Shown here one piece after another: positions 46,411-48,900 of a stretch of 64,000 nt of DNA. This DNA is from an uncultured archaeon (GTDB lineage: Archaea > Thermoproteota > Nitrososphaeria > Nitrososphaerales > Gagatemarchaeaceae): NCBI GenBank assembly GCA_963817525.1, contig CAWFOU010000001.1:160001-224000 (forward strand). The letters are read 5' to 3'. Position numbers and translations under genes: made by a program. The notes below the pieces were generated by a model. That model saw only the letters and a list, made by a program, of their open reading frames with translations, was not told the origin of the DNA and made no database searches. How positions within the stretch are numbered: position 1 is the stretch's first letter; each line of letters starts with the position of its first letter.

Positions 46411-46944
46411 TCAGTACCTGTTGTAGAACCTGGCCTTGAGGTTGCGATTCCAGAGCCTGGCCGCGATGACTCCCGCCACCGCCCCGCTGACGACCCCAAA
46501 CACGAGGATCGTTGCGTCAGTGACCGGGTCGTGAGGGACACCCTTGAACGAGGCGGGGAACGCGAACACGCTGACGTAGAACGCCCCCAGCCCGACCACG
46601 CCCGTGCTTACCATCATGCACGCCGCGAGCCTGACTGAGCTCGCAACCCCGTCCTTCTGGACTCGGAAGAGGGCGCCGAGGACGTCCACGAGCACGCCAA
46701 AGAGGGTCGCGAAGACGAGGTCCACCGGGAAGAACCCGAGCTTGACCACCGTTATCAGGAGCCCACTGACGACCCCGACGTAGCTCGCACCGCCCCGCCC
46801 AACCACGAGGTAGCTCAGGGCGAGCAGGAGCGACTGGATCACTATCAGAAAGTCAGAGTCGGGGGCCGGGATGAACCCGTTGGTCACCAGGATCATGGCG
46901 CCGAATATGGCGCCCAGGGCGATCCTCCTAGAGCTGCTGACCAA
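46411..46944 (-). CDS. Membrane protein, ECF transporter S-component-like
   Basis: 177 aa, 5-6 TM helices, IALGAIFGA start. Confidence 0.55.
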   Translation of the reverse strand: MVSSSRRIALGAIFGAMILVTNGFIPAPDSDFLIVIQSLLLALSYLVVGRGGASYVGVVSGLLITVVKLGFFPVDLVFATLFGVLVDVLGALFRVQKDGVASSVRLAACMMVSTGVVGLGAFYVSVFAFPASFKGVPHDPVTDATILVFGVVSGAVAGVIAARLWNRNLKARFYNRY

Positions 46945-46988
46945 ACGGGGGCGCGACCTGCAAACGGGATTTAAGCGTTGACGAGTGT

Positions 46989-48205
46989 GGCTCTGGTACG
47001 TCTTCGGAAGATGGGCGCTTATATCGTGAAATCGCCTTTCAGGGCATGGAGTCGGTTAGGGCGATCCGCTTCAGGTACGAGGCCTCCGAGGAGCTGTCCT
47101 CCCTTTTCGAGGAGTTCGGCCTCATGTGCAACGACGCCATCAGGATTGCCCTGAAGGAGAAGCCAAAGAGCAGGTTCAGGCTCATCGAGCTCGCCTACCC
47201 CGGGCTCAAGGAGTACGGACTACACACCCACTACATCCTCTCGGCCTGCGAGGTCGCCTATTCCGCCTACAAGAACCGGAAGAGAAAGTCCGCACCCCGC
47301 ATAACAAGGCCGTTCATCAAGCTCGACAGCAAGACATACACCCTGAACCACTTAATCGTCAGGATTCCGACGCGCCCCAGGCATTTCATCTACCTGACCC
47401 TGCACGCGTCCAACTACCACCTCTCCTTTATCGACGACCCCACTTTGAAGCGGGGTCAGATCACCCTGACTGACACAGCGCTCGCGATTGCTTTCACCAA
47501 GAAGGCCGTCGAAACCGAGGCCCGAGGCAGGATGGGGATAGACGTGAACGAGAGGAACGTTACCTGGGCCGACTCGGCAGGGACGGTGCGGAAGGAAGAC
47601 ACGTCGGTGGTCGCGGAGCTCAAGGAGAGATACAAGGCGCTCAGGGCGAAGATCGCCGAGCGGACGAGCAAGGACCGACGCATCCAACGAAAGCTCCTCT
47701 CAAAGTACGGGAGGCGCGAGAGGGACAGGACGACCCAGGCCCTACACCGCGTCACGAAGAGGATCGTCGGGCACGCGGAGGCGAACGGCCAGGCGATCGT
47801 CATGGAGAACCTTAGAGGCATCAGGAAGCTCTATCGCAGAGGGAACGGACAAGGACCGTCCTTCAGGGGAAGGATGAACTCGTGGACGTTCCGCGAGATC
47901 CAGCGGCAGATCGAGTACAAGGCGCGATGGGAGGGCGTCCCCGTCCACTACGTCGACCCCAGAGGCACGTCCCGAAATTGCCCGAAGTGTGGCTCCTCTC
48001 TCATACAACTCGAAGGGCGCAGGCTCTTGTGCCATTCGTGCAAGCAGACCGAGGATAGGGACGACATTGCCGCGATGAACATAATGGCCTGCGCGGTTCC
48101 GCAGGCTCGGCCTGGCGGGTGAAGCTGTGATGGGGAACGAGACGTCGACTCCAATCCTCGGAGCAGATGCCAGGAAGGCGCGTCTCCGGAAGGCGCACCA
48201 GAACC
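46989..48205 (+). mobile_element. 1217-bp non-autonomous TIR element carrying tnpB, with 8-bp target-site duplication
   Basis: Left end GGCTCTGGTACGTCTTC, right end (revcomp) GGTTCTGGTGCGCCTTC; flanks ACGAGTGT (46981-46988) and ACGAGCGT (48206-48213). Confidence 0.8.
47046..48122 (+). CDS. tnpB: RNA-guided endonuclease TnpB (Cas12f-like)
   Basis: RuvC GIDVN / VMENL / DRDDIAAMNI intact; CPKC...CHSC zinc finger. Confidence 0.95.
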   Translation: MESVRAIRFRYEASEELSSLFEEFGLMCNDAIRIALKEKPKSRFRLIELAYPGLKEYGLHTHYILSACEVAYSAYKNRKRKSAPRITRPFIKLDSKTYTLNHLIVRIPTRPRHFIYLTLHASNYHLSFIDDPTLKRGQITLTDTALAIAFTKKAVETEARGRMGIDVNERNVTWADSAGTVRKEDTSVVAELKERYKALRAKIAERTSKDRRIQRKLLSKYGRRERDRTTQALHRVTKRIVGHAEANGQAIVMENLRGIRKLYRRGNGQGPSFRGRMNSWTFREIQRQIEYKARWEGVPVHYVDPRGTSRNCPKCGSSLIQLEGRRLLCHSCKQTEDRDDIAAMNIMACAVPQARPGG

Positions 48206-48225
48206 ACGAGCGTTCGATAGTCCCG
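48085..48225 (+). ncRNA. Putative TnpB omega/reRNA scaffold plus flanking guide
   Basis: Position at tnpB 3' end; complementary CCTGGC (48111)/GCCAGG (48169) and GGTTC (48095)/GAACC (48201); boundaries inferred. Confidence 0.5.
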
Positions 48226-48318
48226 CGCCTCGAGCCGGGGACGACCCGGCCCTCTCCCCGCTGACCCCTGCACAACTGTTAATAACGTTCCAACCCCTCT
48301 TGGAGAGAGCGCATACAG

Positions 48319-48900
48319 GTGCAGAAGAGCAAGCCAGGGCCAAACGAGATCCTCGCCGTGGCCGCGCGGCTCTTCGCGGAGAGGGGCTACTCGAACGTCT
48401 CGATAAGGGACGTCTGCAAGGAGGCCAAGACCAGCGCTCCCATGATCTACTACTACTTCAAGGACAAGAAGGGCCTCTTCAGGGAGGCCGTCAGCGACAA
48501 GCTGAGCCTGCGCCAGTTCATCTCCCGTCTCAAGGAAGACTCGGCGACCAAGGACATCCCCAAGGCGGTAGCGTCGTTCGTCAAGATCTACCTGACCGCC
48601 TTCCCCGATGCGGCATTCGACCCGGGTCTCTACATGAGGGAGACCGCCAAGCTAGACAACCGGAGCGCCGAGGTGGTGAGCAGGCAGCTGGACGAGGTCC
48701 AGACCATAGCCACCTCGATAGTCCAGAAGGGGATGAGGTCGGGCGACTTCCGGGCGGTGAACGCCGAGGAGGCCGCCGACTGCCTGATCGGGATGCTGAA
48801 CCACGTGGTCTTCCAAAAGATCCACTTCTCGAAGACGCTGGACATCGACGCAAAGGCCGAAGTCATCACGTCCTTCTTCCTCAACGCGATGAGGCCGTAG
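48319..48900 (+). CDS. TetR/AcrR family regulator
   Basis: LFAERGY...SIRDV...IYYYFKDKKGLF HTH. Confidence 0.93.
   Translation: MQKSKPGPNEILAVAARLFAERGYSNVSIRDVCKEAKTSAPMIYYYFKDKKGLFREAVSDKLSLRQFISRLKEDSATKDIPKAVASFVKIYLTAFPDAAFDPGLYMRETAKLDNRSAEVVSRQLDEVQTIATSIVQKGMRSGDFRAVNAEEAADCLIGMLNHVVFQKIHFSKTLDIDAKAEVITSFFLNAMRP

Follow-up and report, generated by a model that had tools for sequence, protein, structure and literature searches.

A probable non-autonomous IS6-like element with tnpB as its cargo in an uncultured archaeon of the Gagatemarchaeaceae

The described systems closest to the locus reported here are the TnpB proteins associated with DDE transposases, which Altae-Tran et al. 2023 (PMC10691335) place in six branches (DDE-1 to DDE-6), each branch having inverted terminal repeats and a tnpB whose 3′ end is at most 250 bp from the element end. 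Solo tnpB genes between near-identical ends, as in transposase-bearing elements, were published in the same 2023 paper. A 2026 review (PMC13565253), citing Altae-Tran et al. 2023, names ISL2, IS630 and IS1031 as DDE families with TnpB bounded by terminal inverted repeats (TIRs), calls OMEGA modules rare with DDE transposases in prokaryotes, and ascribes neither TIRs nor target-site duplications (TSDs) to IS200/IS605 and IS607. For the IS6 family, Varani et al. 2021 (PMC7986276) describe a canonical insertion sequence (IS) of ~800 bp with one transposase of 213-254 amino acids (aa), inverted repeats (IRs) of 15-20 bp with cTGTt/caaa motifs and 8-bp TSDs, and list two miniature inverted-repeat transposable elements (MITEs) and one passenger-carrying member. 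We analysed a stretch of 64,000 nucleotides (nt), here called the window, from an uncultured archaeon of the Gagatemarchaeaceae (assembly GCA_963817525.1, contig CAWFOU010000001.1, positions 160,001 to 224,000), in which an element of 1217 bp at 46989-48205 carries an intact tnpB between IRs of IS6 type. The general arrangement, a tnpB bounded by TIRs of DDE type and also found solo, is already known from 2023. What is distinctive here is the combination of IS6-type ends and candidate partner from a family described as copy-in, a predicted omegaRNA hairpin within an IR, and insertion at the promoter edge in an archaeon.

We consider it likely that the element belongs, as a non-autonomous transposon, to an archaeal IS6-like group: its IRs enclose one cargo module (tnpB and its putative omegaRNA), and a DDE transposase would have inserted it in trans, this enzyme being a long protein of IS6 type that is extended at the N terminus by a SWIM/zinc-finger part. 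Like the DDE-associated TnpBs of PMC10691335, it has tnpB inside inverted terminal repeats with the 3′ end within 250 bp of the tip (83 nt from the stop codon here), and solo tnpB is known there too. It differs in its IS6-type ends and candidate partner, its variable 8-bp TSDs, its Nitrososphaerota host, its lack of autonomy, the predicted omegaRNA hairpin inside the right IR and the promoter-edge insertion, going by the text of that paper, and these TnpBs may nevertheless belong to one of its six branches. The rule applied there, a DDE transposase gene at most 1 kb from tnpB, does not hold for the window element. In the main text and the supplement PDF text of the same paper IS6 is named only in a list of transposase profiles, and the consulted text of a 2019 survey of thaumarchaeal mobile elements (PMC6563490) makes no mention of the arrangement. 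A literature search combining TnpB with IS6, with inverted repeats/TSD, with DDE transposase/TIR/archaea and with Thaumarchaeota gave no link of tnpB to IS6-type ends. The first-pass annotation of this locus had set the element against the usual TnpB carriers, which lack terminal inverted repeats; a general premise that no TnpB carrier has them is outdated in view of PMC10691335. The parts of the element and its duplicated target are as follows (window positions).

46981..46988, no strand: left copy of the 8-bp TSD, ACGAGTGT; a single ACGAACGC in empty sites
46989..47016, plus strand: left terminal inverted repeat (IR-L), GGCTCTGGTACGTCTTCGGAAGATGGGC
47019..47024, plus strand: TTATAT, a TATA-like box belonging to the element itself, 22 nt ahead of the tnpB ATG
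47046..48122, plus strand: tnpB, 358 aa, with intact RuvC D-E-D and CxxC..CxxC
48178..48205, minus strand: right terminal inverted repeat (IR-R), which includes the last predicted omegaRNA helix and the invariant AGAACC tip
48206..48213, no strand: right copy of the 8-bp TSD, ACGAGCGT

The two IRs, 28 bp each, are identical at 21 of 28 positions and the 8-mers directly outside them at 7 of 8, and all of them lie exactly where the first-pass annotation had quoted them. The IR-L/IR-R pair is also the longest inverted repeat of the region 46800-48400 (30 nt, 77%). Given the base composition, the chance of at least 21/28 is 7.4e-8 per pair, and 0.09 such pairs are expected anywhere in this 1.6-kb region. 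On limiting the arms to 100 nt beyond the ends of the open reading frame (ORF), the expectation is 0.0007 and 0 of 300 shuffles of these zones reached 21/28. For a direct repeat of at least 7/8 the probability is 5.6e-4. The insertion is seen directly from its empty sites: in eight genomes of the same genus the flanks of the window copy lie ~70-80 nt apart with the element absent, and these alleles align as GATTTAAGGGTTA-ACGAACGC-TCGTTAGG, with one 8-mer and not two, in agreement with the duplication first proposed. In one study, four soil DNA runs gave contigs that span the two junctions of the filled allele. No joint skipping the element was found in these contigs, which is uninformative as to whether the element is expressed or empty alleles are absent.

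The genome to which the window belongs (G000; 2.82 Mb in 15 contigs, 95% complete, 8.75% contamination) was searched as a whole at the DNA level for further copies. Two other full-length copies (89% and 91% identical), a 256-bp derivative by internal deletion, and solo left and right ends were found, and the boundaries of the copies' matches (query positions 9-20 to 1223-1226) run from IR tip to IR tip. The full copy C1:372244-373458 has the TSD CGCAGGCG and the 256-bp derivative C1:344534-344789 has AGACCAAC, both 8/8, and an element in a relative has GCTACTTT, which is other than the TSDs of this genome. Copies bounded at the IRs by differing 8-bp TSDs had been anticipated for such an element, and they exist. 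The 256-bp derivative retains 165 nt at its left, comprising IR-L, the putative promoter of tnpB and 36 codons from the start of the gene, and 104 nt at its right, comprising IR-R and most of the omegaRNA-like scaffold; it could thus give a guide-bearing RNA without encoding TnpB.

These observations bear on the explanation that would be natural for most tnpB genes, namely an ordinary tnpB-only element of the IS200/IS605 group (IS1341-type) moved by a Y1 or serine TnpA, with the IRs being subterminal hairpins and the 8-mers a coincidence. Both IRs do hold a small internal palindrome (CGTCTTCGGAAG/CGTCTCCGGAAG), and TnpB gives weak matches to the NCBIfam profiles IS200_TnpB (8.5e-14) and IS607_TnpB (1.1e-12), far below their cut-offs. 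But the empty allele has a single 8-mer, different copies have perfect and differing TSDs, the right-flank 8-mer recurs in 34% of relatives vs 4% in the control (see below), and the same IRs surround cassettes without tnpB as well as an IS with a DDE transposase. The genome of the window gave 0 Y1_Tnp matches, serine recombinases being outside this search. The empty site and the TSDs refute this explanation for practical purposes, leaving it with hardly any probability, and the earlier view that the ends are unlike those of a Y1 or serine element is borne out. With IS200/IS605 and IS607 (ISDra2, IS608, IS1341-type) the element shares the TnpB superfamily, an omegaRNA at the 3′ end of tnpB that would extend to the right boundary, and a guide that would come from the flank. 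Those elements have asymmetric hairpin ends, a Y1 or serine TnpA and no IR or TSD (PMC13565253), whereas IRs and a TSD are present here.

The cargo itself is an intact nuclease gene, as the first-pass annotation had stated. It is the only long ORF, fills the element and is the sole gene between the IRs, with no DDE transposase gene within. The protein matches NCBIfam guided_TnpB at 1e-34 (120.5 bits, cut-off 100), Pfam Cas12f1-like_TNB at 1.3e-20, and solved Cas12f/TnpB chains. Its residues D166 (in GIDVNE), E254 (in VMENL), DRD at 337-339, which by motif would hold the third catalytic D, and C312/C315/C329/C332 correspond to the RuvC D-E-D and the zinc finger, and these are invariant in eight aligned TnpB proteins. 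The box at 47019-47024 is kept as TTATAT, TTAAGT or TTAAAT at the equivalent place in other copies, and is probably the promoter from which a leaderless tnpB mRNA would start. Since the element has this box of its own, it would be independent of the host box for tnpB expression.

The same ends were then found around other genes. A position matrix together with an IUPAC pattern of the IR gave 12 matches in the window's genome, and the pattern reversed as a control gave 0; since the same copies had served to build the matrix, it was used as a finder only. With at most three mismatches the pattern occurs in 7 of 41 relatives' genomes including the own one, in 6 of 22 of the same genus, and, in a sample of 401 genomes from the whole class, in 3; therefore the IR family is narrowly distributed. 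Scanning a wider collection of genome contigs with the pattern returned 121 stretches, mostly chance or unrelated bacterial matches, and six archaeal loci were examined. An 836-bp element at C7:658454-659289 has near-perfect IRs of the tnpB type and a perfect TSD, GTTCGGAC; it was ruled out as an autonomous partner, having a 200-aa membrane-type ORF without a Pfam match and no transposase. Cassettes with tnpB-type IRs are also present as an 884-bp element in G012 (L032 1501-2384, TSD GCCGCCAT) and a 1069-bp element in G413 (L216-A, L216 1214-2282), and further similar ones as 621 bp in G013 and 757 bp in a Nitrososphaeria metagenome-assembled genome (MAG). The cassettes at C7:658454-659289, L032 and L216 encode unrelated small Ser/Thr-rich proteins anchored at the N terminus (200, 143 and 225 aa), and a cassette end at C1 546842 is accompanied by a 273-aa protein; none of the four belongs to a Pfam family. 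Mobile insertion cassettes and MITEs (e.g. MIC231 of the IS231 group) likewise have IS-type IRs and a TSD around a non-transposase cargo and are presumed to be moved in trans. The window element has the features of such a non-autonomous IS derivative, that is, IRs, a TSD, no transposase, and matching ends on an IS in a related genome, but its cargo is a predicted RNA-guided nuclease module that overlaps one of the IRs.

The IS with matching ends is the candidate partner. It is a 2234-bp element in G413, a genome of the same family but another genus (L216 2291-4524), with IRs AGTTCTGGTGCGTCTGCGGGAGATGG / AACTCTGGTGCGTCTTAGGGAGATTCG and TSD GCGGGAAC (8/8). Its transposase of 404 aa has IS6 as its best NCBIfam family (2e-29), matches Pfam DDE_Tnp_IS240 (3.4e-11, 43.9 bits, cut-off 27) and SWIM, and is 70% identical to a degraded DDE_Tnp_IS240 protein (C-terminal 165 aa) that lies ~200 bp inside a tnpB-type IR in the same-genus genome G008 (L028). 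Other transposase-bearing elements are 4146 bp in G012 (IR cores 24/24 identical, 414-aa transposase, TSD 7/8) and 2030 bp in G006 (perfect TSD). Two loci taken as one-ended IS, L183 and L212, were ruled out as such on finding their left ends further upstream. The window's genome has ten DDE_Tnp_IS240 matches, most of them long (354-397 aa) with an N-terminal zinc-finger part, and two IS of IS6 type could be delimited there with GGYTCTG tips and perfect 8-bp TSDs: C1:352102-354434 (2333 bp, IR start GGCTCTGGTAAG..., TSD TCCGGCGA) and C7:735011-737128 (2118 bp, IR start GGYTCTGTTCAA..., TSD CGGATTTC). The first-pass expectation of an IS6-family transposase with matching IRs is borne out by the candidate in the related genome G413; no such transposase was found in the own genome. 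Its core interpretation, a non-autonomous element moved by an IS6-like transposase, is supported as far as sequence can tell, and an L216-type transposase may have mobilised the element in trans.

As in IS6/IS26 (PMC7986276), these elements have 8-bp TSDs, GG tips, IRs starting GGYTCTG and, in the candidate partner, a transposase with IS6 / DDE_Tnp_IS240 as best match. The tnpB-type IR (GGYTCTGGTGCG...) has the GG tip and CTG of the IR motifs given there, no caaa and a length of 28 bp, and the sibling IS starts GGYTCTGTTCAA. Unlike IS6/IS26 as described in that paper, the partners here are 2.0-4.1 kb long (2030-4146 bp) with SWIM/Zn transposases of 404-414 aa and extra ORFs, which is outside the size given for the family, and non-autonomous derivatives are many.

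At L216 1214-4524 (G413:C1) the 1069-bp cassette, with its 225-aa membrane-anchored ORF, lies directly upstream of the 2234-bp IS, head to tail, and GCGGGAAC occurs before, between and after the two, so that the same 8-mer was used twice. Such double use of a target could be a route by which cassette arrays grow. The array-like layout, and the fact that the repeats are common to cassettes with unrelated small membrane-protein genes, would also fit a cassette system run by another recombinase and not by an IS6-type transposase. However, staggered-cut DDE transposition is what characteristically leaves 8-bp duplications that vary in sequence, and the sole enzyme gene found between such IRs is the IS6-type DDE transposase; we regard another recombinase as quite improbable. 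In the window's genome an IR-like end at C1:1067767 (GGTTCTGGCGCGTCTTAGGGAATGAGGT with a subterminal GGTGGTGCAAGTCGGG motif) has a short DDE-transposase fragment ~620 nt inside (C1:1068387-1068574), and this may be a decayed remnant of a cognate IS.

Relatives show how general the arrangement is. Related tnpB loci number 14 in species-representative genomes, 13 of these in Nitrososphaerota/Thaumarchaeota MAGs, and of 549 TnpB relatives in metagenome contigs 80 loci were kept. The right tip [AG]GAAC[CT] is present in nearly all loci, ~83-113 nt after the stop codon, and the left tip is often decayed. The TSD was for that reason tested blind, leaving out the left tip, on 64 loci with both zones, 47 of which have the canonical right tip and a unique right flank. 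The counts use the alignment-defined right tip and a permutation control; unanchored or regular-expression searches for IR pairs misplaced the tips, often on the internal AACTCTTCGG core. The right-flank 8-mer recurs at 7/8 or better upstream of tnpB in 16 of the 47 (34%) as compared to 4.0% with the 8-mers of other loci, and at 8/8 in 7 of 47 as compared to 0.28%; most of the recurring 8-mers end 55-66 nt before the start codon. Among 21 elements of all kinds with both ends mapped, the TSD is perfect in 14, 7/8 in three, 6/8 in two, has an indel in one and is absent in one, with one entry (L172) being circular because its left end was placed with help of the TSD itself. TnpBs of only 29-35% identity also lie between IS6-type IRs with TSDs (L100, L241, L244, L246). 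A quick method found no inverted repeat of at least 14/18 in 8 of the 18 tnpB loci from G006, G012 and G018. L179, L230 and L282, with tnpB ~68-69% identical, have no IR-L, and their right flank TGTGACCC is matched by a TGTGACC that lies 47 nt ahead of the start codon; it seems that the left end is deleted or that in this subgroup it is far shorter.

The last 230 nt of 13 copies were aligned to examine the RNA that the right end may encode. The features that follow from the alignment are given below.

48086..48205, plus strand: omegaRNA-like scaffold of 120 nt, overlapping the last 37 nt of tnpB
48086-48093/48100-48107; 48111-48117/48168-48174; 48124-48125/48163-48164; 48132-48136/48155-48159; 48177-48184/48192-48199, plus strand: predicted omegaRNA helices
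48206..48225, plus strand: predicted guide portion of the omegaRNA (TSD and flank read-out), its length assumed by analogy with known TnpB systems

Conserved blocks run through all the copies, and compensatory changes are present in 19 of the 38 predicted pairs of the consensus structure. For the 30 pairs downstream of the coding-region helix, 93.7% of the cells are paired as compared to 34-41% when the partners are slid by 1-3 columns, and the covariation score is 0.453 as compared to 0.04-0.08. On four of five measures 0 of 500 shuffles reach the observed values, and on the fifth 6 of 500 do. The window's own minimum-energy fold gives the same helices as the consensus, and no Rfam family matches the scaffold. 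The last helix lies inside IR-R and is followed by the invariant AGAACC at the tip of the element. Since the scaffold ends at 48205, the guide is predicted to begin at 48206, and the start given in the first-pass annotation fits this covariation-supported structure. The 3′ 120 nt of the tnpB mRNA would then become the scaffold, with its last hairpin supplied by the right IR, and read-out past the end of the element would give a guide made of the right copy of the 8-mer and the downstream flank. Fanzor-carrying DDE transposons of eukaryotes are comparable in that they are TIR/TSD elements with a TnpB-family nuclease as cargo and encode the guide RNA at their right end. For solved Fanzors, the target-adjacent motif (TAM) includes the 5′ TSD, and the RNA scaffold includes the 3′ TSD (PMC13565253); here, in contrast, because its sequence varies, the 8-bp TSD is not a TAM and would form the first 8 nt of the guide.

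A TAM would have to be looked for outside the duplication, where two features are present in the flank.

46970..46975, minus strand: TTTAAG, TATA-like box of the putative host promoter for the leftward gene 46944..46411, outside the element
46976..46980, plus strand: CGTTG, 5 nt adjoining the target 8-mer on its 5′ side; a candidate TAM, the complement of the transcription factor B recognition element (BRE) of the host promoter, or both

All 8 empty alleles keep the TTTAAG box, and the distance from it to the TTG start at 46944 is 26 nt. In most tnpB elements with a TSD the 5 nt between box and TSD are CGTTT-like (CGTTG, CCTTT, CGTTT, CGTAT etc.). Counted from the IR on the 5′ side of tnpB, the hexamer at positions -19 to -14 has at least four A/T in 11 of 11 tnpB-type elements with mapped ends, as compared to 3 of 11 on the other side and a genome background of 15%. 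Among the cassettes and the transposase-bearing IS, 9 of 10 show this kind of box on one or both sides. A leftward ORF starts 20-74 nt from the TSD in 12 of 16 tnpB loci, the value for random positions being 48%, and 7 of the 16 (one doubtful) have a start codon at a distance of 32-38 nt from the TSD. Read on the opposite strand, the flank motif is AAACG/AAAGG followed by YTTAWA, which we take to be a BRE and TATA core promoter going by the general archaeal consensus. In our reading, all classes of element in this archaeal IS6-like group insert at the upstream border of a host promoter, leaving 5 nt between the TSD and the box, and the window insertion would have duplicated 8 bp directly upstream of the BRE/TATA of a host gene reading away from the element. 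tnpB points away from the host promoter in 11 of 11 cases, and the transposase points towards it in the three IS checked. The CGTTG named in the first-pass annotation is therefore a plausible TAM in so far as the CGTTT-like flank is conserved, but it is confounded with the promoter-edge target preference of the whole IS group.

If the CGTTT-like motif does act as a TAM, then at an unoccupied site the target would stand contiguous behind it, TnpB could cut the empty allele, and repair would copy the element in (homing); the filled site would be protected as the element keeps motif and full target apart. The alternative is that TnpB is a passive or decaying passenger without homing and the motif merely the host BRE, the ends and past mobilisation being as in the trans-mobilised IS6-like element. 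Cassettes without tnpB and transposase IS show the same geometry of AT-rich box, five nucleotides and TSD (the 9 of 10 above), so the flank motif needs no TnpB. The opposite-strand promoter motif with its start codons at 32-38 nt in 7 of 16 loci, the broken copies described below, and the lack of any excised site in need of repair after copy-in transposition (PMC7986276) also fit a passenger. On the other side, the RNA structure is kept by compensatory changes across TnpBs only 56-69% identical, and D-E-D and the zinc finger are invariant in the eight aligned proteins, which together indicate selection on an active ribonucleoprotein; 549 relatives are present in metagenome contigs; and the box lies on the tnpB 5′ side in 11 of 11, the orientation that homing requires, although an orientation imposed by the transposase explains this equally. 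A mere passenger appears unlikely, though by no means as improbable as the ordinary tnpB-only element or the other recombinase. It is similarly doubtful, and at best a tentative idea, that the whole is tuned as one: IS6-like elements placed at the BRE/TATA edge to the nucleotide, a TAM of TnpB evolved as the complement of the BRE so that the target rule equals the TAM as in IS605, every insertion competent for homing in spite of being copy-in, and IR-R serving both as transposase site and as guide-proximal hairpin.

Several results weigh against the trans-mobilised IS6-like element as we describe it. The full copy C7:1041807-1043022 has clean IRs and no TSD (1/8), which recombination between copies or intramolecular transposition could explain. 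Two of the three full copies are broken, C1:372244 stopping after 150 codons and C7:1041807-1043022 being frameshifted, and only the window copy has an intact reading frame; with the copies 89-91% identical, mobility may be old. No transposase with closely matching IRs was found in the own genome at its 95% completeness: the IRs of its IS match those of the tnpB element only over about the first 10 nt, and its closest homologue of the L216 transposase is 43-46% identical and has other IRs. The L216 transposase itself scores 102.8 bits against the IS6 family, below the cut-off of 125. In G413 there is no TnpB match at E at most 1e-30, so co-residence of partner and tnpB element is unsupported there, and in G012 the IR of the tnpB element agrees with that of the genome's own IS at 17 of 29 positions. 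No TSD of at least 7/8 is detectable in 31 of the 47 relatives, and the single-sequence fold energy of the scaffold is like that of shuffles (z = -0.94). Finally, members of the IS6 family are described as moving by a copy-in route that involves no excision (PMC7986276), so the usual rationale for TnpB, restoring the excised donor site, does not hold directly.

Some further observations concern the surroundings. The neighbours of the element are a membrane protein without a Pfam match and a TetR regulator. The insertion split a near-palindrome, TTAACGAACGCTCGTTAG (46970-46988 and 48206-48222), which is intact in eight congeners (L219-L226) and is situated within the divergent promoter region upstream of the TetR-family gene (48319-48900). 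It is probably the operator of the TetR-family repressor, and the insertion may have changed the regulation of both neighbour genes. Elsewhere in the genome, the region C1:1058000-1072000 was considered as an rRNA operon between IR-like ends and rejected, as no Rfam family matched at the gathering threshold. An origin of the IRs from the 23S end was also looked for, and no match of at least 19/28 was found within 2 kb of the genome's 23S gene. The 23S rRNA match itself (C7:574179-577845) spans 3667 nt as compared to a model of 2987 positions, and the ~680 extra nt suggest that the gene holds an intron or an insertion.

The persistence of TnpB is usually put down to its repairing the loss of IS605/IS607 elements, which excise scarlessly. 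The locus is a well-documented case, with an empty site, independent insertions, a deletion derivative and a candidate partner, and offers a natural system for the role of TnpB in a transposon that makes TSDs and does not excise. A predicted RNA scaffold and a predicted transposase binding site share the same 28 bp, and a promoter-edge target preference is pointed to in an archaeal IS group. With its compact predicted nuclease of 358 aa, a scaffold of 120 nt and 549 relatives in metagenomes, the system also offers another pool of small RNA-guided nucleases.

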